In this document: piece after piece, positions 2,410-28,600 of the stretch
Layout of the letters: every line of letters starts with the position of its first letter
How positions within the stretch are numbered: the first letter of the stretch is position 1
Assembly: GCF_947387555.1 (NCBI RefSeq)
Contig: NZ_CANDNZ010000006.1
Coordinates: 91,482 to 155,481, forward strand
Direction: 5' to 3'
DNA from: Thalassomonas sp. RHCl1
Lineage (GTDB): Bacteria > Pseudomonadota > Gammaproteobacteria > Enterobacterales > Alteromonadaceae
Length of the DNA stretch: 64,000 bases
Made by a program: the position numbers and the translations under genes
The notes under the pieces: model-generated
Seen by the model: the letters and a program-made list of their open reading frames with translations, nothing else
Told to the model about the DNA's origin: nothing
Databases searched by the model: none

Positions 2410-4047
2410 ATGAGTCCTCATTGCGCAATAAAAAAACGGGAGCTTGGTGCATATTATACTCCTCCTGAGTTAACAAAGGTTCTTGTTGATTGGGCTATAC
2501 GCTCATCAAGAGAAACTGTTCTCGAACCTAGCTTCGGTGGTTGCGGTTTTTTAGAAAGTTGTAAAAGCAGGTTGGAGAAATTAGGGACCAAAAGGCCTTT
2601 CACTAAATTATTTGGAGTAGATATCGATGATAAAGCTTTCGATTATTTACATGATATATTTGGACCTATCGTTGTAACTAAACGATTTATAAAAAAAGAT
2701 TTTATTGGTGTTAATGGTAAAGAATTTTCAGTCAAAAAATTTGATGTACTTTTAGGGAATCCTCCATATGTATCACTTCATAATATGACTCCTGAACAGC
2801 GAGAAAGGTGTTTTAAAGTACTTCATTCTTCACCTTTCGCTGATAAAACTATTGGGCGTAATGCAAGTCTTTGGGGGTTTTTCTTGCTTCATAGCTTGAG
2901 CTTTATTCGAGATAATGGACGGATGATATGGGTTTTACCAAGTAGTCTCTTACATACACATTATGCTAAAGCTTTAATTGAAATATATAAGAAGCATTTT
3001 TCTAATATTAAGCTAATTAAGCTAAATCAACGTTTTTTCAAAACTGAAGGTACCGAAGAAGTTTCTGTAATACTAGCCGCGGAAGGCTTTTCTCAAGAAA
3101 TAATTGATCATAACTTAACAGGCCTTTACGTCGCTAAAAGTGTTAATGAATTGAGTGTTATTCTTAACAATAAAGAAATTTTAGAAAAAGACCAGATAGC
3201 TAATCATAAATTAAATTTAGTTAATGAAGATGTTTTAGCGACGTCTGAGTTATTAAAACAAAATTCTGTTAATTTAGGTGATATTAGTAAAATTGTTATT
3301 GGTATGGTGACTGGTGCGAATGACAAGTTTGTTATTAAACCTTCAACATCAAGCAATCTTGGTTTATCTGCTCAAGATATAAGGCCCGTTATTTCTAAAT
3401 TTAAACATCTTTCAGGGATTATTCATGATAAAAGGAGTCATGAAAAACTCATCTCTGAGGATGAAAGATGTCTTTTGGTGTGTCCTTCTGATATACAAGA
3501 AAAACATACATCTGTTCGAAATTATCTAGCTACAATTGACCGGGTAAATAGAAAAACTAACAGAACATTCCCTAAACGAAAATTTTGGTTTTACCCTGAT
3601 GATGAGCAGATACCAGATGCGTTTCTTTCCTATATGATTGATTCAGGTCCTCGTTTAGTTATTAATTCAGCGAAAATAAACTGCACTAATACAATACATC
3701 GTGTGTTTTTTAATGGTGGTATTAGCTTTAGAAAAAAGAAAGCATTAGCTATTTCAATGTTATCAAGTTACACACGTTTTTCTGCTGAAATAGTCGGCCG
3801 TTCATATGGTTCGGGGGTTTTAAAGTTAGAGCCTTCAGCAGCAAAACAGTTAAGCATAATATACAACAATGAGCTATTAGAGCCTTTGTTATCTATTTCA
3901 AAAGAAGTTAATGATTTACTTTCTCGGGGCCTGATTACAAATGCAACGACTATCGTTGATGAATTATTAACAGAGCACTTTGCTATTGATTTTAAAAAGT
4001 TTAGTGATGCAGTTATTGTTTTAAGAAAAGATAGATATGAAAGTTAA
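2410..4047 (+). CDS. N6-adenine-specific DNA methyltransferase, gamma class (TaqI/Eco57I-like)
   Basis: Motif X GAYYTPPELTKVLVDW near the N-terminus. Motif I (AdoMet-binding) LEPSFGGCGFLE. Motif IV LLGNPPYVS (NPPY = amino-methyltransferase catalytic motif). The order X-I-IV defines the gamma class. ATG at 2410. Confidence 0.85.
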   Translation: MSPHCAIKKRELGAYYTPPELTKVLVDWAIRSSRETVLEPSFGGCGFLESCKSRLEKLGTKRPFTKLFGVDIDDKAFDYLHDIFGPIVVTKRFIKKDFIGVNGKEFSVKKFDVLLGNPPYVSLHNMTPEQRERCFKVLHSSPFADKTIGRNASLWGFFLLHSLSFIRDNGRMIWVLPSSLLHTHYAKALIEIYKKHFSNIKLIKLNQRFFKTEGTEEVSVILAAEGFSQEIIDHNLTGLYVAKSVNELSVILNNKEILEKDQIANHKLNLVNEDVLATSELLKQNSVNLGDISKIVIGMVTGANDKFVIKPSTSSNLGLSAQDIRPVISKFKHLSGIIHDKRSHEKLISEDERCLLVCPSDIQEKHTSVRNYLATIDRVNRKTNRTFPKRKFWFYPDDEQIPDAFLSYMIDSGPRLVINSAKINCTNTIHRVFFNGGISFRKKKALAISMLSSYTRFSAEIVGRSYGSGVLKLEPSAAKQLSIIYNNELLEPLLSISKEVNDLLSRGLITNATTIVDELLTEHFAIDFKKFSDAVIVLRKDRYES

Positions 4048-4081: not shown

Positions 4082-6463
4082 ATGCTGGATAAGATAATAA
4101 AGGAAAAACTTAATTTTTCAGTCGATGGGCGTTTGATCTCAGAATTAGGTGAAAAGTTAGTTACAAAAAATTACCTGGCTTTAGGTGAATTAATTAAAAA
4201 TTCATATGACGCAGACTCGGAAAATGTAGAAATTAAATTTAACAATGTTCGAGAAGGGAACGGTACAATTGTTGTAAAAGATCTTGGTACGGGGATGTTG
4301 TGGGAAGAAGTCCGAGATTGTTGGATGAGGGTATCAACATCTAATAAAGAAACAAGTCCCGTATCTTTGATATATGGTAGAAAAAAAAGCGGCAGCAAAG
4401 GTATTGGTCGGTTCGCTTGTCAAAAATTAGCCGCGGCGGTGAATCTTAAAACCGTTGCTATTACAGATGATCCGAATATTGCGCAAGTCACTACTCTTGA
4501 TATTGAGTGGGAGGATTTTAAATTAGGTAAAGATTTAATTGAGATTAAATGTAAATCGGAATACTACTTTACCGAGAAGTCAAATGTAACAATAGGCACA
4601 ACGATAACTCTTATCAATTTAAAGCAAAAATGGAACCAAATTAGTTACAACAGTTTGCAAAGACAATTGGCATCTCTTTCAATCTCATCGCCTGTTCGAC
4701 GAGAAGACTTTGAAGAAGATCCTGGTTTTGAAATTTTAGTAAGTGCAGATGAATTTGAAAGTGGTAACTATAAACTGTCGGAAAAAGTTCTAGATGCTAG
4801 TTGGGGGCGCGTCAAAGGTAGTGTCGCTGAAGATGGTACTGTAAAATTATTTTTTGATGGAAAGCTAATAGGAAAGAAAGAACATACTTTACATGAACAA
4901 TTTCCTATTTTAAAACATGCTGAATTTGATGTAAGTTGCCTACCGCATGTGAAAGCATATCAGAGAAACCCTCAATTAATGAATTCTAAGCAAATGAAAA
5001 TAATTGAGGACACACACCCCGGTATAAAAGTATATAGTGAAGGTTTTAGAGTTTACCCGTATGGGCAGGAAGGGGATGATTGGTTAGGGTTAGACCGCGA
5101 TGTAGGTCGTCGTAAAGCCAAAATAGACAATAATGAATTAGGGAAAATAGCATCAAGTTATGGGTTAGATAAAAGTAGGGTTATTCTTGATTTATTTAGG
5201 AATGCTAACATTGTTGGAGCTGTATACATAGATACTAACATCAACCCTGCCTTTGAAATTAAACTCAATAGGGAAGGTTTCGTTGAAAATGAAGCTTCTT
5301 TGATGCTGTCTAAACTTTTGCGTTATATTGTTGAATGGATGACGGTCCAATATTCATATTTTAAAGTGCTTTTTAGTGAGCATGAATTAGAGCAGCTAAG
5401 AAAAGATTTTGATGACAAATTGGGTAGTAACAATTCGGAGGTTGCTGAAAATAAAATCATTTATGATGAAGAACCAGGAGGTGTAATACCAAAACCTCCG
5501 CTTTCTATTGATAATAAAAAAGAGCAATTTGATAAAGCGATGACGCTCTTATTGAATGAAGCAAAATTCAATAGAGAAACTAGTAATAAGTCTTATTTAG
5601 AAGATATTGCACCTGAAAGAGCTAGTGATCAGTCAGTTGCAACAAATAAAGATTCAGAATTACTTGAAGTCGCAAGTAAAATAATAACAACAGAATTTAA
5701 TGCAAATAAAAATGAGTTAACCTTGTTACGCGCCATTGCGTCATCAGGGCCTTTATTTTTTGTTTTTGCACATGAATTTAAAAGTTTAGTTTCAAATCTG
5801 GATACAGATGCAGGGAATATAGAGCAATGGATCTCTAAAAATAGTAAAAACGATACTCGTTGGCTTTCAGAAATAGCCAAATCAATGAGACTTACTCGTC
5901 AACGGTTCTTGTCACTAGAAAATTTAATTGGTGTGTTTGCATCAACGCATAAAATCAAAACTAAGAGAATCAAAGTTGCGCAAGCGATTGAAAAGGTGTG
6001 TGCTGGATTTGAATTTGTTACAAGCAGCAGTAATATTAAAATTGATACTAAAGGTATCGATGCATTATTAAAAACTCAAGAAATTTCAGATGCTGCGTTT
6101 TATTCAATAGTGGTTAATCTTGTATCAAATGCGATAAAAGTTGTTTTAGCGAAAGGGACACGAGAGATTAGAATTACAGCTTTTCGAAAAAATAATCTTG
6201 TTATGAGGGTTGAGGACAAGGGGATAGGGCTACCTGAAGATAAATGGGATGATGTGTTTTTACCACTAGTAACTGATCCAACAGGTGAAATGTATAATGA
6301 GCTATTTGATAAAGTAGGCACGGATGAATTATCAGTTCTTGGACGAGGTACAGGTTTAGGATTGAACATTGTTAAAGGAATGGTACAAGATAATGGAGGA
6401 AGGGTGAAGTTTATAAAGCCTTCTGATGGGTGGAAAACTTGTGTGGAAGTTATACTCCCCTAG
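4082..6463 (+). CDS. Atypical sensor histidine kinase. The N-terminal domain is a GHKL/Bergerat-fold ATPase (MORC/Hsp90/MutL-like). It is followed by an H-box and a C-terminal canonical histidine-kinase HATPase_c.
   Basis: N-terminus: N-box ELIKNSYDA, G1 DLGTGM, G2-like SKGIGRFA. Middle: H-box-like FVFAHEFKSLVSNL. C-terminus: N-box NLVSNAIKV, G1 EDKGIGLPE, G2 GRGTGLGLNIVKGMVQDNGGRV. AGGAAG RBS before ATG at 4082. The stop lies 13 nt before the next gene. Confidence 0.75.
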   Translation: MLDKIIKEKLNFSVDGRLISELGEKLVTKNYLALGELIKNSYDADSENVEIKFNNVREGNGTIVVKDLGTGMLWEEVRDCWMRVSTSNKETSPVSLIYGRKKSGSKGIGRFACQKLAAAVNLKTVAITDDPNIAQVTTLDIEWEDFKLGKDLIEIKCKSEYYFTEKSNVTIGTTITLINLKQKWNQISYNSLQRQLASLSISSPVRREDFEEDPGFEILVSADEFESGNYKLSEKVLDASWGRVKGSVAEDGTVKLFFDGKLIGKKEHTLHEQFPILKHAEFDVSCLPHVKAYQRNPQLMNSKQMKIIEDTHPGIKVYSEGFRVYPYGQEGDDWLGLDRDVGRRKAKIDNNELGKIASSYGLDKSRVILDLFRNANIVGAVYIDTNINPAFEIKLNREGFVENEASLMLSKLLRYIVEWMTVQYSYFKVLFSEHELEQLRKDFDDKLGSNNSEVAENKIIYDEEPGGVIPKPPLSIDNKKEQFDKAMTLLLNEAKFNRETSNKSYLEDIAPERASDQSVATNKDSELLEVASKIITTEFNANKNELTLLRAIASSGPLFFVFAHEFKSLVSNLDTDAGNIEQWISKNSKNDTRWLSEIAKSMRLTRQRFLSLENLIGVFASTHKIKTKRIKVAQAIEKVCAGFEFVTSSSNIKIDTKGIDALLKTQEISDAAFYSIVVNLVSNAIKVVLAKGTREIRITAFRKNNLVMRVEDKGIGLPEDKWDDVFLPLVTDPTGEMYNELFDKVGTDELSVLGRGTGLGLNIVKGMVQDNGGRVKFIKPSDGWKTCVEVILP

Positions 6464-6475
6464 CGTGGAAATAAT

Positions 6476-7528
6476 ATGAATAAGAAATTTAATATTTTGT
6501 TTGTTGACGATGAAGTCAACGGAAATAGAAAAGGTTTAATCGCTAACATTAATTATGATGAGCGTTTTAATGTTACAGAATATCATCCTGTAGACGCAAT
6601 TGAAGATCTTGATAAAGGACTTATTGAAGATAAGTATGCATTAATTATTGTTGACTATAAGTTGAGCCATGAACCAAATAGAAACAATGTATCATGTCAC
6701 TCAAATGGATATTCATTAACTAGCTTGTTTAAAGAAAAACTTCCCAATACCCCTGTGTATTTAATCAGTCAAATTCTAACAGATGATATCTCCATGGGTG
6801 AACATTACGATAAAATGTTTTCTCATAGTTTCCTTACTTCAGAAAAAGGAAGAGATTTATTGGCCTATGACTGTGAAGATCATCAACAACTTTTAAAAGA
6901 AGCTCGAAATTTAAATTCTTTTGAAAAAATATGTGAATTTTTGATGGTACCTAATGAATGTAAAGATGCCTTTAAAGTGGCTTTACCAATTGAGTTTAGA
7001 AAAGGTCTATCAAACAACTTAGATAATAATTCTTCACAAGTCTTAGATAAGGAACGCAGTTTTATAAGGTTTGCTAAATGGATAAATCAAATATTCTTAC
7101 TTAAAAGCGGACCTTTAATTGATGAGTTGGAGGTTGCTGTTTTATTTGGCCTTGATTATGAATATTTTAAAACAAACTTTCGTAAAGAATATGAAAGCGA
7201 TTTAATGGCATGTGAATATAAGGGGATTTTTGCGAAAACGAATGAAAAAAAATGGTGGAGCCAAGCTGTTTTCGATTTTGCGGTTTCTTTAGCTGATGAG
7301 GATTATATTTCATATCCTTGGAAAGTTGTTCCTAAAAAGCTAAATGTTGAAGAAAAATTTTTATCAAAATGTGCTTTATGTCAAGAAAACACCCCTGAGT
7401 GTACGGCATTTGATAGAGATGAAACCGAAGGAAATACGAAATATGCAGCTCATTGGAGCTGCACCGTTGCTGCAGAAGATCAGGTCGATCTAGCTGGGTT
7501 TAATCCTGTTTTATATTTGGATGATTAG
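6476..7528 (+). CDS. Response-regulator receiver (REC) domain protein with a roughly 220-aa C-terminal output domain of unknown function that contains a Cys cluster
   Basis: N-terminus ILFVDDE (acidic pocket) and ALIIVDYKL (putative phospho-acceptor Asp) are typical CheY-like REC motifs. The C-terminus has CALCQENTPEC...HWSC. I recognise no HTH. Confidence 0.7.
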   Translation: MNKKFNILFVDDEVNGNRKGLIANINYDERFNVTEYHPVDAIEDLDKGLIEDKYALIIVDYKLSHEPNRNNVSCHSNGYSLTSLFKEKLPNTPVYLISQILTDDISMGEHYDKMFSHSFLTSEKGRDLLAYDCEDHQQLLKEARNLNSFEKICEFLMVPNECKDAFKVALPIEFRKGLSNNLDNNSSQVLDKERSFIRFAKWINQIFLLKSGPLIDELEVAVLFGLDYEYFKTNFRKEYESDLMACEYKGIFAKTNEKKWWSQAVFDFAVSLADEDYISYPWKVVPKKLNVEEKFLSKCALCQENTPECTAFDRDETEGNTKYAAHWSCTVAAEDQVDLAGFNPVLYLDD

Positions 7529-7536
7529 GAGTTATT

Positions 7537-8280
7537 TTGGCAAAGAAGGATTTTTTTTACGAAGCCTATAAAAAAAATTTATGTAACTTTTTTAAATTTT
7601 TATCAGCGGATACACGTGTTAGTCAAGCTCTTGTAAAAACTCTTAGTGAAATAAAAACTAATCAGCAAGTTCTCCAGGCCGCAACTAAAAGCAAAAAAGT
7701 GAAGGTGGACTTACCAAGCTTTGAAATACCGTTATTAAACTCGGTAAAATGTGGAGTAGATACAGATTCTTTTTTATCTATAGGCGGTAAAATCGAATTT
7801 AATGAGCAAGGTATTGTAAATCAAAGTATATCTGCTTGCCTTATTATAAGGCCCCATGAGGATACAAAAGTTTGTGAAAAGAATGCTACAGGCGTAATGA
7901 AAGCTGGAAATAAGTATATAATAAGGCGTTTTCATTTTGATATAGATTCAAGTCAAACTAGTAAGGATCGGCCAATATCACATGTTCAATATGGTGGAAA
8001 TATTCAAGATGAACAAAAAGGAAGCTCGGAATACCAATTAATCAATTCTATTGATCTGCCTCGAATTCCCTCATTCCCACTAGATGTAGTACAGGTTATC
8101 AACTTTTTAATGGATCAATTCGATACAACTTTGAAACAACAATTCAAATTACCTAGCTGGAGGGGAATAGTTGTGGATAATGATGCAATTTGGAAGAAAT
8201 ATTTTTTTGAAAAAATGATTTCAAAAACAAGTAAGCGTAAGACAATGTATGAATGGGCCTGTGATCCGATTAGCTTTTAA
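7537..8280 (+). CDS. Hypothetical protein, 247 aa, last gene of the methyltransferase / histidine kinase / REC cluster
   Basis: TTG start 6 nt after an AGGAG RBS and 9 nt after the REC gene stop. No recognisable motif. Confidence 0.45.
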   Translation: MAKKDFFYEAYKKNLCNFFKFLSADTRVSQALVKTLSEIKTNQQVLQAATKSKKVKVDLPSFEIPLLNSVKCGVDTDSFLSIGGKIEFNEQGIVNQSISACLIIRPHEDTKVCEKNATGVMKAGNKYIIRRFHFDIDSSQTSKDRPISHVQYGGNIQDEQKGSSEYQLINSIDLPRIPSFPLDVVQVINFLMDQFDTTLKQQFKLPSWRGIVVDNDAIWKKYFFEKMISKTSKRKTMYEWACDPISF

Positions 8281-8527
8281 TAAAGAACTTTATTGTTTTA
8301 ATTTAGATGATTAATTTGAGGATTATTTACATAGTAAAGTTTTACTTTTTTGTGGATATTACAGTAACTAAACGAACAAAAACAAAAGTTGTAATTTATT
8401 TAATTAATAGGGTTTGAAGCGGTCAACTGATTTTGATCACTAGATTTTAAGAATTATACAAAATATGGTTGTTTTTTAATGGAAGTCTATGGCTTTGTTA
8501 GATAATAACCGTTTTGAGTCCTTGGAG

Positions 8528-9151
8528 CTATTGAAACCGCTTACACAGCTCTTCCCAGTTTGGTTGCGCTGTTTTTAAATCTGTCGGCTCGAAGCGATCC
8601 CTATATGGTGAGATTGCAGGTTGCATCCAACAGAGTTGTCTATCTGCCTCATGCTTATCTTCCTTTGTCATAAGCTCTCTGCTCTCAAGATATGTGTACA
8701 AGGCACGAAGGTAGAATGAGTAGAGGTCGTTTAAGTAGGGAGTGCATCCAACACTCGTGTTTTCAGCTCCGCACCCTAAGTTAATCAGATAAGCAGATGA
8801 TTCTCTTACGCTCCGCGTGCCCATCGCTATCTGGTTCAGTGAGATGCGACCTAGATTTTTGTTCGCGAGGTCTACAGCCGTTTGCGCCGCGAAGACCGCT
8901 GCGTTAGCTCTAGTTACCGCTGTTTCGGCTTTTCTTCGTTCCACAGTCGATTCTGAGGCTTGATACAGTGCGATAAGAGCAGCAGCGATTGCAACTATCA
9001 GCCCTAAAATCGCTGGCATACCCGTTGCTGTTATAACGCCAAACCATGATTGGTGGTGGCCACAATGGAGGCATATAACCGCGTCCTTCGGAATTGGACC
9101 TACATGGCACCAGCGACAACGCCGGTCGAGAGCGTTCACGTTTTCTTTCAT
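8528..9151 (-). CDS. Zn-ribbon plus single-TM membrane protein (CxxC...CxxC N-terminus)
   Basis: N-terminal RRCRWCHVGPIPKDAVICLHCGH (four Cys / His zinc ribbon), then the hydrophobic helix MPAILGLIVAIAAALIALY. It is convergent with the upstream cluster. Confidence 0.45.
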   Translation of the reverse strand: MKENVNALDRRCRWCHVGPIPKDAVICLHCGHHQSWFGVITATGMPAILGLIVAIAAALIALYQASESTVERRKAETAVTRANAAVFAAQTAVDLANKNLGRISLNQIAMGTRSVRESSAYLINLGCGAENTSVGCTPYLNDLYSFYLRALYTYLESRELMTKEDKHEADRQLCWMQPAISPYRDRFEPTDLKTAQPNWEELCKRFQ

Positions 9152-9388
9152 AGTGTCTATCGAGCTATAAATTTTTTGATATTTGGGATTAGGTAAAACA
9201 ACTCAAATAATTGCAAATTATTAATCTATAGTCTACTTAGCTTTGTTGAATGAATATGGTGGTATCGTTTAAGTTTAATCAAATAATAAATAAAACCTAA
9301 ATTAATATTGAGATTGAGGGAGCATAGTCTTCTATCATTACTTAAACCAATTTGAAAAATAGCCTAAAAACTAGAGAGGTTCCTCACC

Positions 9389-10684
9389 ATGGCTATATCA
9401 AAACTGTTTATTAGAGTTTTATTGTTTTTTATTTTCTGCGGAATAGCACATGCAACCGTGTGCCGTTTGCCTGGCTTAAATGGTTTTAATGAATCACAAA
9501 TTCGCGGTGAAAAATTTATTAGGTCTACGACATCAAATTTAAAAGACGTAAGTCTATACATTGAGTTGACTGAAAATGGGCCATGGTACCACTCAAATTA
9601 CATTACACCAGGATTTGAACACCCTACTAAGATTGGTAGAGAAGATATTTATGATGCACAACGTGCGTACAATAACATTGCCATAACACAGGAAATACTT
9701 GATAAAGATTCAAGTATAATAGGCCGTTTGGAAAAAGCCTATGAAGAAAACTCTACCATTTATGTTGACCAAAGCGTATTAAATTCAGATGGTACTTCTA
9801 AGATTGATTTTGGAAGAGCCAAGAATCTAATCGCGGTTGATGGTAAAACTGGAAAGCAGTTGAGTGAAATAGTAAAGATTGATCGCACTCTAGGCAGGAA
9901 AACATTGCTAACCGGTCGAGCACTTGGGTGTTGTTTTTTTGTTTTTCCTCCTCATTTTTTAAAGACATTAGTTGCTCAATTAAGGTCTAAATTATTTAAT
10001 TCTAAAAATGTTAATATCGTAAGTTTGGTAAAAGATTCTGCTACTGCTAGGGCATTTAAAGAGAGTAAATTTCTGTCTAAAAATGTTAAGCAACCTGACG
10101 GATTAGAAACTAAAGTCGCTCTGAGAAATCAAATCAAGGATAGCCGTGGAAAAACGCTTATTGTAGTTGGGCATGTTGAAGGCAAAAAGTTTGTCACTAG
10201 GGATGAAGCAGGGAACATGGTCTTTGATTATGATGTTGCTGACTTACATACTTTAGCAAAAAAGAACAACGTGCAACTGATCGCGCTTGGATGTGAAACA
10301 GCAAAAAATGTTGATTTGGCTACAACTGGTAGTGGTGTAGTGAAAAAATTTAACACTGTAGATGCTGTATCTAATTTAGAGGCAGCTTTTTCATCTTCGA
10401 AAAACTATGCAGAGTTTTTCGAAAACCTTACTAGTCCTGATCTAATGTTTGTTGCTGGTGAAACGTTTTTATCAAAGTCTCCAGAAGCTATTGCCAAAGT
10501 TTCCATTTTTTCTAGAATTAAAGGTTCTGTAAGTAAAAGAATACAAGTGGGGGCTGCTTATCTTCTTGGGAGGGGGAGCAAAATAAATTTCTCGAAGCCG
10601 ACTAAAATGGTAGCAGGACAAGAGCTAACCGAAAGTGAACGTCTCAAAATAATATTGGAAAAACTTACTGGTGAGACAAGGTAA
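9389..10684 (+). CDS. Secreted protein with a signal peptide and a possible CHAT/caspase-like His-Cys dyad
   Basis: Signal peptide MAISKLFIRVLLFFIFCGIAHA. LIVVGHVEG, and about 45 aa later LIALGCETAK, resembles the CHAT-domain H...LSACET catalytic dyad arrangement. Confidence 0.45.
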   Translation: MAISKLFIRVLLFFIFCGIAHATVCRLPGLNGFNESQIRGEKFIRSTTSNLKDVSLYIELTENGPWYHSNYITPGFEHPTKIGREDIYDAQRAYNNIAITQEILDKDSSIIGRLEKAYEENSTIYVDQSVLNSDGTSKIDFGRAKNLIAVDGKTGKQLSEIVKIDRTLGRKTLLTGRALGCCFFVFPPHFLKTLVAQLRSKLFNSKNVNIVSLVKDSATARAFKESKFLSKNVKQPDGLETKVALRNQIKDSRGKTLIVVGHVEGKKFVTRDEAGNMVFDYDVADLHTLAKKNNVQLIALGCETAKNVDLATTGSGVVKKFNTVDAVSNLEAAFSSSKNYAEFFENLTSPDLMFVAGETFLSKSPEAIAKVSIFSRIKGSVSKRIQVGAAYLLGRGSKINFSKPTKMVAGQELTESERLKIILEKLTGETR

Positions 10685-10687
10685 TTA

Positions 10688-11311
10688 ATGAAAAATTCTC
10701 CTAGTATACTGACCCCTATAAATGAAGCTGTTAATTTTTTAGAACTCATACAACCAGAACATCTTAGCAAGTTCCGAGAAAGCTACCCGGAACTATCTGA
10801 GGAGTTGAAGCCTGGAATAATTGCCGGTTCAGAGGATTATTCTTCTGAGTTTATTAAGGCTAAGGCAAATATTATGCTACATACCCTGGAGAGAGCTATC
10901 AATGCAGTGAAGATAGGTTCTCGCAAGGCTGCACAAAGGATAACTTGGGTTAATCGTATTCGTACTGGGAGCGAAATATTAGTGCTTGTGGGAAGTTCTT
11001 CAGTTCTGGGAACTATTAACCTTGCAAATGAAACACCACACATTTTGGCTGCTGCTATAACATTAATCGCAAGCTGCGGAAGCCTGCTTGCGAAACATAC
11101 ATCAAGAATAACTTCTCCAAAATTAGGTAATATTAATGTCGCATATACTACGCTATCGACTTTAGTCTTTGAAACGAGTGAATTAATAAAGGAATTAAAA
11201 CTTGCTTTGCGCTTTTCACTTCCATTAGAAGATATTTCTGATCTAATATCTCGAGGTAACCAATTGATGGCCCGGGTAAATAAGTGGGACTCTCAAGTAT
11301 TGAAGATCTAG
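10688..11311 (+). CDS. Hypothetical protein, 207 aa (helical)
   Basis: ORF starting 4 nt after the previous stop, so probably translationally coupled to the secreted protein. Confidence 0.4.
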   Translation: MKNSPSILTPINEAVNFLELIQPEHLSKFRESYPELSEELKPGIIAGSEDYSSEFIKAKANIMLHTLERAINAVKIGSRKAAQRITWVNRIRTGSEILVLVGSSSVLGTINLANETPHILAAAITLIASCGSLLAKHTSRITSPKLGNINVAYTTLSTLVFETSELIKELKLALRFSLPLEDISDLISRGNQLMARVNKWDSQVLKI

Positions 11312-11524
11312 TTATTTAGTGTTTCATTGATATTGTGAGTTGTGTAAAGAACTTTATTGTTTAAATTTTTAGGTTGGAATTGTATCTTGGCTTTATAGTA
11401 AAGCTCTTTATTTTTTAAAGCTCTGAATTTTATAGTCACTTAATAGGTGTTATAGAGGAATTGAGTAAAGGACTTTATTGTTCTCCTACATTACTTGTGG
11501 GTGAGTAATAAAGTATCATACTGA

Positions 11525-11571
11525 AAACGCCCTGCTTTACTCAAAATATGAGTAAAGCAGGGCGTTTTTTA
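11525..11571 (+). terminator. Rho-independent terminator
   Basis: Stem AAACGCCCTGCTTTACTCA, a 6-nt loop, then TGAGTAAAGCAGGGCGTTT followed by a T-run. Confidence 0.6.
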
Positions 11572-11611
11572 TGGCATCGAAAAAAGTCAGTTTACTATTG
11601 TGTGATTATAG

Positions 11612-12805
11612 ATGTTTCTCCGTCTGTCTTTGGCTATAGTTAAACGCTCAACGTTAGTTTTAAAAGGATTTAAAATGACCAGCCCTTCTGTTCAAGAAAA
11701 AGCTATAGAGATTTGCTTTCCGGAAAACAATGCCTTTGCATTGCCGTGCGATCCTAATAACCCTGACGAAATTGCCTGCTTTCGAAAAGATAATCCACAT
11801 ATTAAAAGCACTGTTATTCCTCCAGGTACACCGTATATTCTTCGAAGGGAGTTCGGTGAAAATCCCCAGCCCTGGCAGGAGTTGAGGCCTGATCTCTCTG
11901 ATACCTTTACCCGGCTGAATAATCTGGATGCCGAAACCAGACGTAATATTGCCAATATGAACAAGTCCTTTGGCAGTGAATTATTGGTTGCCTTGTCTGA
12001 ATTCCATCGTGTTGAAATTGCTCCTTTGGTGTTAAGAACTAAAGAATACGCAAAGGATAAGGTATGGAAAACAGTGAATAAGGAGTCTGGCGGTTTGGTT
12101 GGAGCCGGTGTAGGGGCATTGGATAATCGTTTAACCAACTTTAATAAGGCGGTTCTGGAGAGTCAGCGTGCACTGGAAGAAGTACGTAAAGGCTATCAGG
12201 CTAAAATCCCCAAGCTGGAGCTATATAAATTAGAGCAGACCGCTAGAGAGTTGTTGCGTGAAATGAAATATAACTTTCAGGCTGAGCTGACTAAATATAT
12301 GGGCAATGCCAGGGCAAGTGCCAGAGGTACTGTATGGAGCAATCCGGATCGTGCCATAGCTATTGCCAAGAGCGGTCGAACAGCTACTCCTATTCAATTA
12401 TCAAACGCTAAAGAAATGCAAAGGGTTAAGGAATTTGGCATGGTGGGGAAGTTGGCCGGTCCAGGGCTGTTGATACTTGATATTGGAGTTAGAGTTGGCA
12501 ATGTGCATGTAGATCAGATGTCGGGACTAGATTGGCAAAGACGGGCTGTTGTTGAGACTACGGGATTAGGAACTGCCGGCTTTTTGGGAACTGCAGGTGC
12601 ATATGCCGGTGGTGCTGCAGGTACCGCAGCGATTAGTGCTCTTAATGTTGCTTTATTGGCAACACCTGTGGGATGGTGTGTAGTTATCGGTTCGGGCCTG
12701 GCTTTGGGGTATTTGGCTGCTAAAGGAGGTGATACGGCTGGCCAGTGGCTCGCCGGGTTGTTTTATGATGCCAGTGCAAGTATCAAATGGAACCGCTTGT
12801 TTTAA
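11612..12805 (+). CDS. Toxin-like protein with a C-terminal Gly/Ala-rich glycine-zipper membrane domain (putative pore-forming or polymorphic toxin)
   Basis: C-terminus TTGLGTAGFLGTAGAYAGGAAGTAAISALNVALLATPVGWCVVIGSGLALGYLAAKGG has repeated GxxxG/A motifs. A small 2-TM protein gene follows 14 nt later. The gene sits in a duplicated cassette. Confidence 0.55.
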   Translation: MFLRLSLAIVKRSTLVLKGFKMTSPSVQEKAIEICFPENNAFALPCDPNNPDEIACFRKDNPHIKSTVIPPGTPYILRREFGENPQPWQELRPDLSDTFTRLNNLDAETRRNIANMNKSFGSELLVALSEFHRVEIAPLVLRTKEYAKDKVWKTVNKESGGLVGAGVGALDNRLTNFNKAVLESQRALEEVRKGYQAKIPKLELYKLEQTARELLREMKYNFQAELTKYMGNARASARGTVWSNPDRAIAIAKSGRTATPIQLSNAKEMQRVKEFGMVGKLAGPGLLILDIGVRVGNVHVDQMSGLDWQRRAVVETTGLGTAGFLGTAGAYAGGAAGTAAISALNVALLATPVGWCVVIGSGLALGYLAAKGGDTAGQWLAGLFYDASASIKWNRLF

Positions 12806-12819
12806 TTTGAGGCTTTAGC

Positions 12820-13170
12820 ATGATTGAGATTACTACAGAGCTATTGTTTGCCATCATTTTTGCACTATCAATTTTTGTGGCGGGGATTGCTACTTTTTGT
12901 TTTATCCGGATTTCCGGTAAGCATATCGAACGGGAAATGAAGAAGGAAGGAAAGGTACCGCCGGGGTGGGATTCAACTATGGGATTCAGATATGGGCTTT
13001 ATGCCATAACTATTGTTCGTAACTCCATAGGGCCCATGTCATTTGTTGATGATGAAGCTGTGTTGCGCCATGCCCGTAAAAAAGACAGATTTTTAGCGTT
13101 GTTTTTGGTGATTTCTACGATTGTGTTGATGGTTGTAGGTTGCCTGGTTTATTTTTTATATGCGTCCTAG
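12820..13170 (+). CDS. Small 2-TM membrane protein, putative cognate immunity protein
   Basis: 116 aa with hydrophobic N- and C-terminal helices. It lies immediately downstream of the toxin-like gene. An intact paralogue (about 70% identical by eye) sits at 13957-14310. Confidence 0.5.
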   Translation: MIEITTELLFAIIFALSIFVAGIATFCFIRISGKHIEREMKKEGKVPPGWDSTMGFRYGLYAITIVRNSIGPMSFVDDEAVLRHARKKDRFLALFLVISTIVLMVVGCLVYFLYAS

Positions 13171-13383
13171 TTTGGAATTTTTATTCGAATACGAAGACAT
13201 ACATGCCATTTTCAGTATGAAACTTTATTTTTAAAGCCTGGAAAAACTCAACAGAAGAATGGGCCTTGTGAGTAATAAAGTATCATATTAAAAAAGTCAG
13301 TTCACTATTGCGTGATTATAGATGCTTCTCCGCCTGTTTTTGGCTACAGTTAAACGCTCACGTTAATTTTAAAAGGATTTAAA

Positions 13384-13940
13384 ATGACCAGCCCCTCAGT
13401 TCAAGAAAAAGCGATAGATATCTGCTTTCCGGACAATAATGCCAATGCCTTTGCATTACCGTGTGATCACAATAACCCCGATGAGATTGCCTGTTTTCAC
13501 CGAGATAATCCGCATATCAAAAATACCGTTATTCCACCGGGGACGCCTTATATTTTCCGAACGAGGCTGGCGAGAACCCTCGTCCCTGGCAAGAGCTGAG
13601 GCCTGATCTATCCAGTACCTTTACACAGTTGAATAACCTACCTGCGGAAACCAGGCGCAATATTGCAAATATGAATCAGGCCTTTGGCAGCGAGCTGCTT
13701 GTTGCCTTGTCGGAATTTCATCGTGTTGAAATAGCTCCTTTGGTGTTAAAGGCAAAAGAGTACAGCGAGAATAGGATATTAAAAACACTAAATAAGGAAT
13801 CTGGTGGGTTGGTGTATTGTCATAGGTTCGGCAGTAGCCCTGGGATATTTTTCAGCTAAAGCCGGTGATTCGGCGGGACAATTTTTTGCCGGAATATTTT
13901 ATGATGCTAGTGCAAATATTAATTGGAATCGTTTGTTCTA
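13384..13940 (+). pseudogene. Degraded paralogue of the 11612-12805 toxin-like gene, with a frameshift after about codon 57 and a roughly 180-codon internal deletion
   Basis: N-terminus MTSPSVQEKAIDICFP... matches copy 1 and then shifts frame (ENPRPWQELRPDLSSTF in another frame). KESGGLV is fused directly to GWCIVIGSAVALGYFSAKAGDSAGQFFAGIFYDASANINWNRLF*. The roughly 120-bp upstream leader is also duplicated (13269-13383 matches 11574-11690). Confidence 0.7.
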
Positions 13941-13956
13941 ATTTGAGGTTTTATGA

Positions 13957-14310
13957 ATGATTGAAATCACAACTGAGCTAGGGTTTGCCATTTCTTTTGC
14001 TTTATCACTGTTTGCAATGGCTATTGCTACTTTTTGTTTTATCAGAATATCAGGAAAACACATTGAAAGGGAAATGAAGAAAGAGGGGAAGCTACCCCCT
14101 GGGTGGGATTCAACTATGGGGCTTAGGTACGGATTTTATGCAATAACTATTGTACGTAACTCAATAGCACCCATGTCATTTGTTGATGATGATGCAGTGT
14201 TGCGTTTTACTCGAAAAAAAGATCGTTACCTTGCTTATTTCTTTGTCATTACGTCGGCTATATTTTTGCTGATTATTTTTACTGCTTACTTGTTCTTTGA
14301 TTTAGAGTAG
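13957..14310 (+). CDS. Paralogous small 2-TM immunity-like protein, intact (an orphan immunity gene after the degraded toxin)
   Basis: 117 aa, MIEITTEL...FCFIRISGKHIEREMKKEGK.PPGWDSTMG.RYG.YAITIVRNSI.PMSFVDD.AVLR, nearly colinear with the 12820-13170 protein. Confidence 0.55.
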   Translation: MIEITTELGFAISFALSLFAMAIATFCFIRISGKHIEREMKKEGKLPPGWDSTMGLRYGFYAITIVRNSIAPMSFVDDDAVLRFTRKKDRYLAYFFVITSAIFLLIIFTAYLFFDLE

Positions 14311-14346
14311 GAAAAAGGTTTATGTCTTTATTTATATCTACAAGAT

Positions 14347-14430
14347 ATGCCTTATCTTTTGCGTAAAAATATTGATGGTAACTGCCGATCTTGGCAAGAA
14401 TTAAGGCCAGAGCAATCTAATCCCCTTTAA
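14347..14430 (+). pseudogene. Third short remnant of the toxin-like gene
   Basis: Encodes MPYLLRKNIDGNCRSWQELRPEQSNPL*, which matches PYILRREFGENPQPWQELRPDLSDTF from residues 75-100 of the 397-aa toxin. Confidence 0.4.
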
Positions 14431-14706: not shown

Positions 14707-14991
14707 ATGGCTGAATATCATCATACGTCAGAGCCACGCCCGGCAAAAGCAAAATATCCCACCAGCCGCCAGCTCACGGTGCTGGAAACCGCTTGCCAAA
14801 CAAGTCTTAAGCCCAGGGGCATAGGTGTTAATTATGTGCCGGTCAAGCTGGAGCCTTGTATTGTCCTGAGGGGGAAATGGTTGAAGCAGGCCGGTTTTAC
14901 TATCGGTGAAAAGATCACGGTAACTGCTCTTGGGAGGCAATTAGTGATCCAACCCGCCCAGGTTTTACCTGACTCGGCAGATAAGCGATAA
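14707..14991 (+). CDS. symE: SymE-family type I toxin (AbrB/MazE-fold, SOS-induced endoribonuclease-like)
   Basis: RQLTV...VKLEPCIVLRGKWLKQAGFTIGEKITVTALGRQLVIQPAQ parallels E. coli SymE NRQLTV...[33 protein letters not shown]. A terminator follows. Confidence 0.65.
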   Translation: MAEYHHTSEPRPAKAKYPTSRQLTVLETACQTSLKPRGIGVNYVPVKLEPCIVLRGKWLKQAGFTIGEKITVTALGRQLVIQPAQVLPDSADKR

Positions 14992-15467: not shown

Positions 15468-16394
15468 ATGAACATCTCAATGGAGGAGAATACAATGAAT
15501 GATATAAACACAACGCTTACCGCGCCTGCACTACCCGGTATCAAAAAAAGGAATGAAATTTTTGATTTTTTATTTTATGACATAGGTTCACTCTCAGCAG
15601 AAGAGAAAAAGAACCTGTCACCCATGGAAAATCACGAAGGCTCAATTATTGTGGTATCGCCTAAAGCAGCAAACAAAGAAATACTGGAGTTTGCCACAGC
15701 TGCCGACTTTATCAAGGCTGCTCCCCGTGAGGTAAAAGCCTTGGTGGTTGCCGGTGTTGGCAGCTCGGTTATTGGCACCGCATCTCTGGCACGTAATGTC
15801 GCAAATACCTACAACATTGCAGTGGCGGGTATTGTTTCCGGATACGGCGCCGCCGATCTGATTTCAGAAGCCTTGGGTGGCTGGTTTTTCTATGGTGCGG
15901 CTGATAAACACCGGCTTAAAATGAGAGAGTCGATGGGAGACTTCAGTTCAATGTTTACTGCGAATCCATTTTTCCAGTCAATGCTGCAAGCTGTACCGCA
16001 GGCTACAGAGCATGATGGAAAAAATACCGATATTGGGGCATTAAATGAAATATTGGCAGCCAAATCCATCGATCTATCGCTTATTGTCGGACACAGCAAA
16101 GGCAACCTGTTGATAGATTATGCTTTAGAGAAATTAGCCAAAAAATTTGCCGACACTGGTCACAGGTATTACGACGCATTGCGTATCGTGTCATTAGGAG
16201 CCGTGACCAATTTTCCTCCGCAATTTACCAATGTCTACCAGTTCCTCGGCGGTATTGACTGGTTTGGCGGACTAAATTCCCGCCTGGGGCTGGAGCATAC
16301 AAAAGTGCCGAGTGCATGGCATCATTTAAACACTGAACTCCCCTATCACATTTCGATCGAATCGCTGTTAAAAGAAAATGTTGCCCTTAGCTAA
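15468..16394 (+). CDS. Alpha/beta-hydrolase-like protein (putative lipase/esterase) with GHSKG nucleophile elbow
   Basis: GxSxG pentapeptide VGHSKGNLL, preceded by a Gly-rich VVAGVGSSVIGTASLA segment. 308 aa. Confidence 0.45.
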   Translation: MNISMEENTMNDINTTLTAPALPGIKKRNEIFDFLFYDIGSLSAEEKKNLSPMENHEGSIIVVSPKAANKEILEFATAADFIKAAPREVKALVVAGVGSSVIGTASLARNVANTYNIAVAGIVSGYGAADLISEALGGWFFYGAADKHRLKMRESMGDFSSMFTANPFFQSMLQAVPQATEHDGKNTDIGALNEILAAKSIDLSLIVGHSKGNLLIDYALEKLAKKFADTGHRYYDALRIVSLGAVTNFPPQFTNVYQFLGGIDWFGGLNSRLGLEHTKVPSAWHHLNTELPYHISIESLLKENVALS

Positions 16395-25658: not shown

Positions 25659-28600
25659 TCAGTCCTGTATTAATTCATCCGAACTGTTTTCTCTGTCCTG
25701 CACCAGTTCCCGGCTGATTTTCTGAATTTCACTGGTGGCGCTGCGCACTGGCTGTCCCGGTTTAACCTCCAGTGTTTTCAGGGTTTCCACCAGGGCGCTG
25801 TCCAGAGCCTGGTTGTTTTGCAAGGTCGTGACCAGGGGAGTCAGGAAAGCCTCCATTTTTTCGCTGAATATCGCCAGAGTTTTTTCCAGCTCGGCATTGT
25901 TGCCGGCTTCTGCTTTTTGGCCGTTTAATTGGCTGGCCAGTGCCGACAATGACTGACTTATCTGCTCCAAACCGTCTGATTTTGGCTGCTCCAGGGCGCT
26001 GCCTATCTGGCCCAGGCCCTGCTGCAATAACGAAATCTGGCTGGCAATCGAAGCCAGCGGATCATCGCCGCTGCCCAGGTTCTGGTGGCGGACATAATCG
26101 TTTTTGATTTGCTGCCAGCGCTGCTCTTGTTCATCCGTTAACGTTTCTCTTAGTTCCGCCAGTTTTAACAGGTTTTCTTCCGCGCCTACCGTCAGGGTTT
26201 GTGCTTCGCCGCGGTAATGATCTGCAATCAGCAGTTCCAGCTCTTCATCCGTCATCACCGGCACCACTTTTTCCGCCATCTTGTTCATATTGCGGTAGCT
26301 GCCCTGTAATTTAAACGGCGGTTCCACTCGGTATTTATCATCCTGGGCGGCGGAGGCAATATATTGTTCGTTGGCCTTAAGTACGGTTTGCTGGATTTTA
26401 CGGATGCGCTGGATCACCGCGATGATCTCGTTCACTTCCGCCTGGGAATAACCGTGTTTGAGTTCGGTGATCGGCAGCGGTTCGCCGTCGGCCATTTTTA
26501 CCAGTTGGTAGAGGTCGTCCATATCCCGGGTGGCCAGCGGCGCGATATAGCTGTTGCTGGTTAAGCTGTTTTCGATAAAGCTCAACGAGAACTCATGTTC
26601 ACGGCCGCTTAAGGTGTCACCCAGGTTATAGATGTCGGCGCGGTTGGCGAGCATATCCGGGATGGTAAAGGCTTCGCCGGATTCGGTATAAGGGTTACCC
26701 GCCATGACTACGGCAAACTTTTTGCCGCGCATGTCATAGGTTTTGCTTTCGCCGTTCCAGACGCCGTCTACTCGCCTTGAGCCGTCACACAGGGAAATAA
26801 ATTTCTGCAAAAACTCCGGGTTGGTATGTTGGATATCATCCAGGTAGAGCATAACATTATTGCCCATCTCAAACGCCAGGTTGATTTTTTCTACTTCGCT
26901 GCGGGCGGTGGAGTTATTGGCCTGGGCGGGATCCAGGGACAACTGCTCATGGCCGATAGACGGACAGTTGACCTTGACGAAGGTCATACCGAGCTTGCTG
27001 GCGACATATTCTATCAAGGTGGTTTTACCGTATCCCGGCGGCGAGATCATTAATAACAAACCCATGAGATCCGAGCGTTTATTATTGCCGGCGGCGCCGA
27101 TCTGTTTGGCCAGGTTAGTGCCGATAATAGGGAAATAGACGTCGTTGATCAGTTTGTTGCGGACAAAAGACGACAGTGCCCCCGGTTTGAACTCCTGCAG
27201 GCGCAAGCGCTGGCGTTGCTCGGCTAATATCTGCTGTTTCAGCTGGTGGAATCGGGTAAAAGCCGGTACTTGCTCGTTGGTAAAGTTTCTCAGCCGGGCA
27301 ATAAATTCCTGGTAGCTAAATGCCAGTACCTGCTCCTTGATGCGGCCATGTTGCCCCAATAAACCTTTGACCATACCCGAGGTATTGGCGCTGGAGTCAT
27401 AAAATTTCAACGGCTCTTTCAGCGTCATCAGGCTGGCACCTTCAAGGATTAATTCCTGATCGGCATCAATATCCTGATGCCCGGCAAACGAGGTTAACCA
27501 GGCAAGGTGCAGTTTCATTTTCTGCTCCAGGCTGCTGCATCCGGCCAGGGCCGATTGCAGTTGCTGCTCCAGGCTTTTATGTTTGAGCTGGTTTTGTAAC
27601 TGATTTACCAGGCTTTTTGCGGCTTCACGGATCACGTATTGCTGTTTGCCGTCGGCAAATTCATTGATCAGATAATCTGCGGCTAAACGGCTGTCGCAGG
27701 CCAGCCAATTTTGCTCTGTGATCAGCTCGGTTAAGGCTTGAGCCAGTTCATCGCTCAGCTGGGCGCGCAGCTCACTGCTACCGAAAGTTTGCTCCATCAA
27801 ATAGAGGTTGTGACAGCGGTTAACTAATTGCTGGCGTGCCTCATCATTGAGCCCGGTTGCCATATAAACCCATGCCAGGCGGCGCTCGGCCGCGGCATAG
27901 GCTAGCAGGCCTACCGATTGGCGTAAGGCCAGTAATTCGCTCAGGATCAGGCTGGCATCGGCGTCGTGCACCCCTTTGTCATAACCTTCCTGGTATCTGG
28001 GCTCAGCGGCTTTTCGCACCAGCTCGGTTAAAGTGTTTTCTTTTGCCGCACCAAGCAGAGTATCTATGCCGGTGCTGCCTTTGGCTTCGGCCTCGAATAA
28101 GATACTTGCTGCCAGGTATTCGCCGCGGTAAACCTCGGGGCTTTCTGAGATCAGCTCCTGCTGCCATAAATGCTCGGTGCCGGCAAAAAGCTCAGGCGCT
28201 AACGGTTCAAAATAGTCGGTGCCGCTGATATGCAGCACCATAGATTGTTCCCTGGGCAGTAAGGTCAGTTCCAGCTTTTGCCGGTTGACGGAGAACTGGT
28301 GTTCGCCGATTTTTACCAGGCTGCCGTCGGCGGAATAAATATCGGTTTTGTCGCGCAAGGCACGTATGCCCTGCTCTTTGGCGTTTTTCAGTTGGGCGTC
28401 GACATCGTCGGCACGCACGTTATCGTCCAGATCCCGCAACTGCTCCGTCAGCTGTCTTAATTTCGCCACCATAGGGTCGGCGGCAAAATAGCTGTTGAGC
28501 TTATTAACGTCGTTAAAGTCCTGGCTGCGGCGGTTGATGCCTTCGAGGATACGGTCGGCGGCGGTTTTCAGGTTTAAACAGCGTCTTTGCTGGGCATCCA

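Follow-up and report, generated by a model that had tools for sequence, protein, structure and literature searches.

What kind of system leaves a small gene intact beside a dead large partner? The question is raised by a locus at positions 11501-14430 of a 64,000-nucleotide (nt) stretch from contig NZ_CANDNZ010000006.1 of Thalassomonas sp. RHCl1, here called the window, where a pair of a large and a small gene is followed by a second, damaged copy of the same pair. An earlier note, made from the sequence alone, had described a toxin/immunity-like cassette at a locus of the polymorphic-toxin type. The wider comparison agrees with this: the pairing of the two genes, the arrays of small genes, the recurrent decay of the large gene and the co-divergence of the two products all support it. 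The locus is probably an inter-bacterial toxin-immunity locus of an undescribed family, encoding a pore-forming toxin of the colicin type and an immunity protein with two transmembrane (TM) segments. The window contains one intact cassette, one cassette reduced to its immunity gene and one relic of a third cassette (Table 1).

The first copy consists of a leader, the large gene and a gene for a protein of 116 amino acids (aa) with two TM segments; this composition had been noticed earlier, and it is borne out by the map of open reading frames (ORFs), the raw sequence and a pairwise alignment of the DNA. The length of the large protein requires correction. Translation almost certainly starts at ATG 11675, yielding 376 aa, and not at ATG 11612, which would yield the 397 aa initially assumed, because the Shine-Dalgarno box AAGGA is situated 6 nt upstream of the former codon, the length of all close full-length homologues is 360-376 aa, and a RefSeq entry coincides exactly with the 376-aa product. 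The 116-aa protein has hydrophobic segments at residues ~1-33 and 88-116, as computed from hydropathy, and a basic central loop of ~59 residues (12 K/R vs 7 D/E). It is identical to the MULTISPECIES entry WP_044842614.1. In T. viridans, remnants of a broken toxin (95 and 290 aa) are linked to this entry. It does not match any Pfam or NCBIfam family.

Neither of the two window proteins matches a Pfam, NCBIfam, PADLOC or PHROGs model. A word-indexed protein search produced only 17 relatives of the toxin, and a second word-indexed search with a deep alignment added only three sequences (P0163, P0167 and P0168). An exhaustive HMMER profile search identified at least 436 cluster representatives at E<=1e-3, 272 of them at E<=1e-10. 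The family occurs mostly in marine Gammaproteobacteria and metagenomes, the distant members being almost all metagenomic, and has no matches in the phage collection. Members are nearly always free-standing, with a length of about 310-376 aa. The 150 best representatives listed all have the same architecture, the longest of them having 394 aa, and none is fused to a large carrier (Rhs, CdiA, LXG, PAAR).

The likely function of the large protein is suggested by its C-terminus. A profile of residues 215-376 derived from 36 diverse members was compared with 177,635 sequences from the Protein Data Bank (PDB). It matched colicin B (1rh1, E=3.3e-4), colicin A (1col, 0.01), colicin Ib (8iom, 0.016) and colicin S4 (3few, 0.083), which constitute four of the six best matches. 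All four alignments have the same register and cover the C-terminal half, that is, the last ~105 residues, of the pore domain. Thus the comparison with colicin pore-forming domains, suggested in the earlier note, gives a positive answer. The near-invariant family block LD.G.R...V..DY..G.DWQR..V.E is aligned with the colicin signature ...GNWGPLMLEVE; it is followed by a Gly/Ala-rich hydrophobic hairpin and then by a K/D-rich tail. The conserved positions are D269-x-G-x-R273 ... W287 ... E294, where W287 and E294 are nearly invariant and align to the colicins. The hydrophobic segment of the window toxin spans residues 307-353, and nine overlapping motifs [GAS]xxx[GAS]xxx[GAS] occur at 297-326. 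The Pfam Colicin family PF01024 is matched by one of the 36 C-terminal segments (E=0.0058), and two homologues carry the automatic UniRef name 'Channel forming colicins domain-containing'. Judging by the alignments, what lies in the Gly/Ala-rich tail (residues ~297-352) is a hydrophobic hairpin belonging to a divergent pore-forming domain of the colicin type. It had been described as a glycine-zipper domain; it is indeed Gly/Ala-rich and hydrophobic, but it corresponds to the colicin hairpin, with no demonstrated relationship to proteins of the Ssp6/Tse4 type.

The structure of the toxin was modelled with AlphaFold2 (AF2) from an alignment of 110 sequences. The model has a predicted local distance difference test score (pLDDT) of 71 and a predicted template modelling score (pTM) of 0.67; an alignment of 15 sequences gave pLDDT 48. 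The pLDDT exceeds 90 at residues 10-130 and is low at residues 270-376. The model consists of a confident beta-alpha-beta N-terminus, long helices up to residue ~211, a small alpha/beta unit and a hydrophobic C-terminus modelled with low confidence. The N-terminal domain, used as a profile, matches nothing in PDB or Pfam. A LysM-like N-terminal domain, an impression from the sequence pattern, was dropped since the domain profile has no such match.

Several observations weigh against the assignment of a colicin-type domain. The homology is remote: it takes the C-terminal profile to reveal the best match (E=3.3e-4), and comparison of the full-length profile to PDB produced only noise (myoglobin, E about 0.2). 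The window toxin has no Pfam match and is below the PF01024 threshold; 110 diverse full-length members have no convincing Pfam match, and none to PF01024 at E<=0.01. An exact match to the PROSITE pattern of channel colicins, T-x2-W-x-P-[LIVMFY]3-x2-E, occurs in none of 169 family sequences. Of the colicin domain, only about helices 5/6-10 are included in the alignment. Finally, the candidate immunity protein has two TM segments, compared with three or four in the immunity classes of colicins.

The second group of evidence comes from the comparison of loci. The sample included 14 genome loci from Shewanella, Colwellia, Oleispira, Vibrio and Spongiibacteraceae, and, in addition, two loci of T. 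haliotis (L015, L016), metagenomic contigs and one Pseudoalteromonas chromid. Clustering of neighbour ORFs demonstrated that the toxin and the small gene are the only gene families shared by ~17 distinct contexts. The pairing is obligate: the small gene is situated directly 3' of the toxin gene wherever downstream sequence exists, including an uncalled ORF in L022, and the two genes overlap or are separated by 3-60 nt. The distant small proteins (120-126 aa) are homologous across the superfamily and have the same two-segment layout. Outside the window, the pair is often an isolated two-gene islet among housekeeping genes.

Many loci contain tandem small genes: two in L001, L010 and L011, three in L002 and L008, and five in L006 and L012. 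In L008, L010 and L011, 3' fragments of toxin genes are situated between the small genes. The T. haliotis locus L016 contains two toxin copies that start at residue ~81, directly past the N-terminal domain, and each truncated copy has an intact small gene; these copies adjoin symE and an Rhs toxin array with orphan tips. Extra immunity genes downstream, together with toxin fragments that lack the candidate delivery region, are thus characteristic of these loci, the window included. A nonsense mutation interrupts the toxin gene in L001 and in L002, frameshifts do so in L010, L011 and L012, and the small genes in all these loci stay open. Hence the suggestion of the earlier note that toxins decay and orphan immunity genes persist holds in a broader sample, as a dead toxin is accompanied by open small genes in at least five loci. 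The nonsense mutations are GAG->TAG in Shewanella frigidimarina (L001 10418) and GAA->TAA in Colwellia sp. (L002 10427). They are independent and affect one and the same helix, ...KLQ[E]AL[E]KVR..., at a distance of three codons, for no obvious reason.

In pore-forming colicins, the specificity of immunity maps to the hydrophobic hairpin. Among the parts of the toxin, segment 291-376 shows the best correlation in identity with the small protein (Spearman 0.92, 11 intact pairs of the family considered here). When closely related pairs are compared, divergence is fastest in the hairpin and in the immunity protein. For example, the identity between L003 and L005 is 0.88, 0.87 and 0.83 in the first three toxin segments, 0.65 in the hairpin, and 0.44 in the immunity protein. 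This co-divergence fits the pattern predicted for a putative intramembrane interface that determines specificity.

The second copy in the window is an instance of the same decay. Its large gene is inactivated by a frameshift and an internal deletion, as had been observed. The pseudogene aligns in tblastn to copy-1 residues 1-57, 59-142 and 332-376 in three different frames, and therefore it has a 1-nt deletion near 13560 and has lost residues ~143-331. The latter deletion comprises ~189 codons (the first estimate was ~180), is out of frame and occurred at a short microhomology of the GGTTGGTG type. The small gene of this copy is intact and diverged, with 72.8% aa and 72.4% nt identity to gene 1, close to the 70% given before. 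The similarity between the copies is far above chance (tblastn E=4e-64 and 4e-54).

A third remnant of the large gene, described earlier as having 28 codons, is also present, although with 27 codons. The assignment of this relic rests on a motif match, because it is not detected by tblastn or blastn. It retains the conserved family block PY.LR...WQELRP, in which P and W are spaced as in the 360-aa subfamily (P0007/P0008) and not as in copy 1. A parallel exists in T. haliotis, where the third copy in L015 is truncated to 265 aa. The spacer between the window cassettes is homologous to the spacer preceding the latter copy, and therefore the arrays of both species share ancestry.

The locus had been interpreted as a tandem duplication followed by decay. 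The tandem copies and the dead toxin are indeed there, but the duplication is not recent. The synonymous divergence (dS) between the copies, calculated by the Nei-Gojobori method, is 1.4-1.8, that is, the synonymous sites are saturated. The ratio of nonsynonymous to synonymous divergence (dN/dS) equals 0.125 between the small genes, and in the surviving toxin segments it is 0.04-0.09. Because of the saturation, the two cassettes are best described as old, diverged alleles in tandem, rather than products of a recent duplication that has since decayed. The low dN/dS of the surviving segments indicates that the copy-2 toxin was inactivated recently relative to the divergence of the copies. By these estimates, both cassettes have been under purifying selection since an early separation, the copy-2 toxin having been disabled only recently.

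The leader is repeated in copy 2, in agreement with the earlier description (92.6% identity over 94 aligned nt). However, the repeated unit starts further upstream than had been assumed, and its true upstream limit is the box GTGAGTAATAAAGTATCATA at 11501 and 13268. A related sequence occurs upstream of the T. haliotis cassette L015a. The leader core ...GTCTTTGGCTATAGTTAAACGCTCAACGTTA...TTTTAAAAGGATTTAAAATG is common to all five cassettes of the 376-aa type in the two Thalassomonas species. The leader is much better conserved than the saturated synonymous sites between the copies; it is a constrained promoter and 5' untranslated region (5'UTR), a tract homogenised by recombination, or both. 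Scanning of the leader against Rfam yielded only sub-threshold matches. In copy 1, an insert of ~59 nt between the box and the leader forms a terminator-like hairpin. It was missed by a consensus terminator scan, but direct folding shows a very stable RNA structure (dG, the folding free energy, -34.8 kcal/mol; z = -9.2 vs shuffles). The same hairpin was found upstream of L015a and, in part, upstream of L015c. It probably shields the cassette from transcription arriving from upstream.

From these data the following mechanism may be proposed. The 376-aa toxin would be made without a signal peptide, exported, and brought to the periplasm of a neighbouring Gram-negative cell. The C-terminal colicin-type domain would then approach the inner membrane from the periplasm, insert its Gly/Ala-rich hairpin and open an ion-conducting channel, leading to collapse of the membrane potential. 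The 116-aa protein would reside with its two TM segments in the inner membrane of the producer and neutralise the incoming toxin by an intramembrane helix-helix contact with the hairpin, and it is this contact that would determine the specificity of alleles. Immunity gene 2 may have been retained as a plausible protection against neighbours carrying the corresponding allele. The conserved leader and the 5' region of the toxin gene could provide homology for the exchange of cassettes.

The route of delivery is a separate matter. Quite possibly, the toxin is an orphan cargo effector of a type VI secretion system (T6SS), its structured N-terminal domain of ~60-80 aa being the loading signal. The two genes form a tightly coupled bicistron on the same strand. 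The N-terminal domain is predicted to be folded, and it is precisely this part that the orphan copies lack. Genes for Hcp and VgrG are situated 9 kb from one distant member (L020), and one more locus (L016) adjoins an Rhs array. Orphan effectors having a ~55-aa N-terminal delivery domain and colicin A-like C-termini have been described (PMC10435454). On the other hand, the 64-kb window contains no T6SS gene, no T6SS family recurs in a set of 125 neighbour proteins, Hcp/VgrG are found near only one of ~17 distinct contexts (again L020), and no marker of the MIX, FIX, RIX or PIX type was detected in the family. Genes for contact-dependent inhibition (CDI) or lysis are also absent from the window and do not recur near the relatives. 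A literature search found nothing on T6SS in Thalassomonas. The L020 region itself (4549-14164 of a metagenomic contig) resembles a mixed antagonism island: downstream of the distant pair it contains a 319-aa unknown gene, a TPS-domain exoprotein, a DUF5649 protein, a ShlB-type transporter, and then hcp and vgrG. Delivery in the manner of a diffusible colicin-like bacteriocin is somewhat less likely, and other routes share the remaining probability.

The bacteriocin route may be considered as an explanation of the whole locus. The large protein would then be a compact diffusible bacteriocin of the size class of colicin N and klebicin E, and the small gene would still encode immunity. Such a protein would be released from a fraction of producers, bind an outer-membrane receptor by its central helical region, be imported by Ton/Tol via the conserved extreme N-terminus, and finally permeabilise the inner membrane by its pores. 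In favour of this, the similarity is to genuine colicins, the layout of an N-terminal domain, long helical hairpins and a C-terminal pore domain is the same, and the size is close to that of klebicin E (376 vs 377 aa). At the extreme N-terminus, the conserved pattern M-[PAST]-E-[IVL]-[LI]-[LFI] loosely resembles a TonB box. There is no linked secretion system, and the leaders contain the sequence CTGT-N8-ACAG, perfect in copy 2 and with one mismatch in copy 1. However, the N-terminal 130 residues are predicted to be folded (pLDDT >90), in a region where colicins are disordered and glycine-rich. No locus contains a lysis or release gene or a conserved small ORF of the lipoprotein type, and LexA-type boxes are absent upstream of all 19 other family genes. 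The loci are chromosomal and do not reside on small plasmids, the sole match in the plasmid collection being a chromid of 801 kb. Taken as a whole, the bacteriocin explanation is unlikely.

The LexA-box-like palindrome CTGTTTTTGGCTACAG at 13334-13349 is perfect in the leader of the dead copy 2, and its one-mismatch version occupies positions 11624-11639 of the copy-1 leader. It overlaps the probable -10 region (TATAGT/TACAGT). Since it is absent from 19 other upstream regions of the family, it may be due to chance or to local regulatory acquisition. SOS regulation as a family trait was rejected, as CTGT-N8-ACAG occurs in the window leaders only (0/19 elsewhere).

It is very unlikely that the pair is an intracellular toxin-antitoxin or abortive-infection module, in which the large protein would depolarise the membrane of its own cell upon phage infection and the small protein would restrain it. 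This possibility is raised by the genomic islands of the window and of T. haliotis, which carry a restriction-modification methylase, an HNH gene, a GHKL-ATPase and a helicase, all typical of defence islands, by the adjacent type I toxin gene symE in the two species, and by the lack of an export signal in the large protein. However, neither protein has a PADLOC or PHROGs match or a match in the phage collection, and most relatives are situated among housekeeping genes rather than in defence islands. Sets of two to five diverged small genes, and toxin fragments from which only the N-terminal domain is missing, are typical of repertoires of inter-strain immunity and would not be expected of a single antitoxin, and many loci keep small genes next to a dead toxin, where under the defence explanation they would have no function. 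In addition, pore-forming colicin domains act from the periplasmic face of the membrane and generally do no harm if produced in the cytoplasm.

Finally, it is hardly credible that there is no toxin at all and that the genes encode a paralogous membrane-associated pair, involved, for instance, in envelope stress or transport, with the lesion in copy 2 being ordinary pseudogenisation: the colicin similarity is weak, and Gly/Ala-rich hydrophobic segments can produce spurious profile matches, but four colicins match in one register that includes the non-hydrophobic signature block upstream of the hairpin, the family is patchily distributed and horizontally transferred, toxins are recurrently and independently inactivated with the small gene retained, arrays of small genes are common, and the hairpin co-diverges with the small protein.

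The toxin-immunity cassettes are situated in a low-GC island that covers the first ~16.5 kb of the window (31-44% vs ~50% beyond). The island opens with a Tn7-type tnsE at 35-1291 (TnsE C-terminal domain, Pfam E=2.5e-43), and thus the cassette may be cargo of a Tn7-like transposon or island. A search for repeats that could form a Tn7-like end near 14.3-17.2 kb found nothing convincing. A related defence-like gene set, with additional HNH and IS66 genes, flanks the T. haliotis cassettes in L015. The three family-less genes at 8528-11311, directly upstream of the cassette, are not kept beside it in other loci. The gene symE is a recurrent neighbour, since its homologue is situated beside a cassette of the 360-aa type in T. 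haliotis (L016 11993-12277).

Table 1. Features of the cassette array and of neighbouring genes (window coordinates; functions are predicted)
Feature	Position	Strand	Remarks
Boundary box, first copy, 20 nt, GTGAGTAATAAAGTATCATA	11501-11520	+	Exact twin at 13268-13287
Terminator-like hairpin, 21-bp stem followed by T-run	11523-11570		Copy 1 only, no counterpart in copy 2
Leader (promoter/5'UTR), copy 1	11580-11674	+	Shine-Dalgarno box AAGGA at 11664-11668; 92.6% identity to copy-2 leader
Intact putative toxin gene, 376 aa	11675-12805	+	100% identical to RefSeq WP_281559101.1, Thalassomonas sp. RHCl1
Toxin N-terminal beta-alpha-beta domain	aa 1-80, nt 11675-11914	+	AF2 model
Toxin long-helix region	aa 81-214, nt 11915-12316	+	AF2 model
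Toxin candidate colicin-type pore-forming domain	aa 215-376, nt 12317-12805	+	C-terminal profile
Toxin Gly/Ala-rich hydrophobic hairpin	about aa 291-352, nt 12545-12730	+	Hydropathy
Immunity-like gene 1, 116 aa, two TM segments	12820-13170	+	Starts 14 nt past toxin stop
Inter-cassette spacer	13171-13267	+	Homologous to spacer before third (truncated) cassette of T. haliotis L015
Boundary box and leader, copy 2	13268-13383	+	Alignment; palindrome CTGT-N8-ACAG at 13334-13349
Toxin pseudogene, copy 2	13384-13941	+	1-nt frameshift near 13560 and out-of-frame internal deletion
Orphan immunity-like gene 2, 117 aa, intact	13957-14310	+	Same two-TM layout as gene 1
Relic of third toxin allele, 27 codons	14347-14430	+	Encodes MPYLLRKNIDGNCRSWQELRPEQSNPL; equivalent to residues ~52-78
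Eco57I-type N6 methylase	2410-4047		Upstream, defence-like
Double-GHKL-ATPase protein, 793 aa	4082-6463		Weak PADLOC 'REase_II'/MzaB match
Two family-less ORFs	6476-7528, 7537-8280		
Zinc-ribbon and TM protein, 207 aa	8528-9151	-	
431-aa protein	9389-10684		Signal-peptide-like N-terminus
207-aa protein	10688-11311		Start nearly abuts stop of preceding gene
SymE-family type I toxin gene	14707-14991		Just 3' of cassette array; Pfam E=2.7e-12
299-aa protein (ORF listed as 308 aa)	15495-16394		GHSKG serine-hydrolase-like motif, Gly/Ala-rich hydrophobic stretch, no Pfam match
1742-aa protein	25659-30887	-	DUF3686 ('ATPase involved in DNA repair', E=1.9e-191), DUF7902, AAA_5
661-aa family-less ORF	31008-32993	-	Directly upstream of 1742-aa gene

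The 299-aa protein encoded downstream of symE belongs to a broad uncharacterised family with 349 matches, including Actinobacteria, Planctomycetes and Magnetococcales. Its T. viridans homologue has a nearby locus tag, SG34_000390. This ORF was considered as a candidate Thalassomonas relative of the effector Ssp4 (see below), and rejected, as its family reaches Actinobacteria and Planctomycetes. Farther downstream, the 1742-aa and 661-aa genes could form a large defence or repair ATPase system.

Antibacterial pore-forming toxins are hard to spot from sequence and are probably under-counted. The family described here assigns a likely activity, that of a colicin-type channel, and a likely immunity partner with two TM segments to at least 436 protein clusters that have only hypothetical annotation. 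It offers a compact and testable marine system, with natural allelic pairs (70-73% identity of the immunity proteins) suitable for tracing specificity to the hairpin, and with natural 'cheater' states that have retained only immunity. The role of the conserved N-terminal domain in export or import can be tested directly; if this domain is indeed a delivery signal, it would help to find effectors in Alteromonadales and Oceanospirillales. In our judgement, what is new is a widespread unannotated family and a new architecture of immunity, whereas the general type of the system is known. The conceptual gain is moderate, because decay of toxins with retention of orphan immunity genes is already well known.

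Among the known systems, pore-forming colicins (types A/B/N/S4 and Ia/Ib/E1) have a C-terminal pore domain with a hairpin near the C-terminus, no signal peptide and an adjacent gene for a small immunity protein of the inner membrane, as is predicted also for the family considered here. Specificity is expected to reside in the hairpin, and the observed co-divergence fits this expectation. Klebicin E has 377 aa, a TonB box at residues 2-10 and a downstream membrane immunity protein, and the immunity proteins of colicins form an E1 type with three TM segments and an A type with four (PMC10906532). The family differs from colicins in that the N-terminus is predicted to be folded rather than disordered or Gly-rich, lysis genes and a family-wide SOS box are absent, the genes are chromosomal or transposon-borne, the immunity protein has two TM segments, and the PF01024 threshold is not reached.

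Orphan pore-formers of T6SS (Ssp4/Sip4, Tme1/Tmi1, RIX) are also similar. They are free-standing proteins of ~300-380 aa without a signal peptide, a gene for a small membrane immunity protein is situated immediately downstream on the same strand, and the genes are usually far from T6SS genes. They are marine gammaproteobacterial proteins, have a short N-terminal region separate from the toxic C-terminus, and depolarise the membrane, which would be expected here as well. The dependence on T6SS has been shown for the Ssp4, Tme and RIX families and is a proposal for the present one.

The Ssp4-like family consists of orphan T6SS pore-formers of ~331 aa. In Ssp4, a region of ~113 aa at the N-terminus is predicted to be disordered and is followed by a helical bundle predicted with confidence at residues 114-302; the corresponding immunity protein, Sip4, has four TM helices (PMC12669606). 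A 'marine' subgroup of Ssp4-like proteins includes Thalassomonas and Shewanella entries with matches at residues ~3-281 (PMC12669606). In the window family the pattern of confidence is reversed, the N-terminus being confident and the C-terminus not, and the immunity protein has two TM segments instead of four. Because of these differences in the confidence pattern and in the immunity architecture, we judge the Ssp4-like family to be the closest in lifestyle, yet distinct; it is set apart by its published description and not by sequence comparison, which is the chief caveat on novelty. The UniProt accessions of the Ssp4 dataset belong to a different series from those of the window family.

The Tme motif consists of a near-invariant DxxK and, after it, a TM helix with D at its flanks (PMC7046647). 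Inspection of the family alignment by eye did not reveal this motif, and the supplementary lists of Tme proteins do not contain Thalassomonas, Colwellia, Oleispira, Shewanella frigidimarina or S. waksmanii (PMC7046647). RIX is a two-helix, arginine-rich domain found only in Vibrionaceae and Moritellaceae (PMC10435454). VasX and TpeX resemble the window family in the colicin-like membrane domain at the C-terminus and in having an immunity protein of the membrane. However, they are proteins of ~119 kDa with MIX and PH domains, are encoded beside hcp/vgrG, and have immunity proteins with four TM segments.

The tandem extra immunity genes and the toxin fragments devoid of the N-terminal delivery part are analogous to those of polymorphic CDI and Rhs loci. 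The immunity proteins of CDI ionophores are small, hydrophobic two-helix proteins of 72-100 aa (PMC11630599). A glycine-zipper-like motif in the membrane domain is a further common feature. Unlike CDI and Rhs toxins, the toxin considered here is free-standing and has no carrier fusion, and CdiB/TpsB is not linked to it, apart from a coincidental case in L020. The CdiI hairpins are predicted to have both termini in the cytoplasm, whereas the basic loop of the 116-aa protein suggests the opposite orientation.

Set against these systems, the family may tentatively be regarded as a third class of colicin-type pore-formers with their immunity, widespread among marine Gammaproteobacteria and combining an immunity protein with two TM segments and a folded N-terminal domain of ~60-80 aa, which would be a lineage-specific delivery signal. 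In such a class, the N-terminal domain could be either a new RIX-like marker for T6SS loading or a new import module. The latter, if confirmed, would make both a disordered translocation domain and a lysis gene, as present in colicins, unnecessary.

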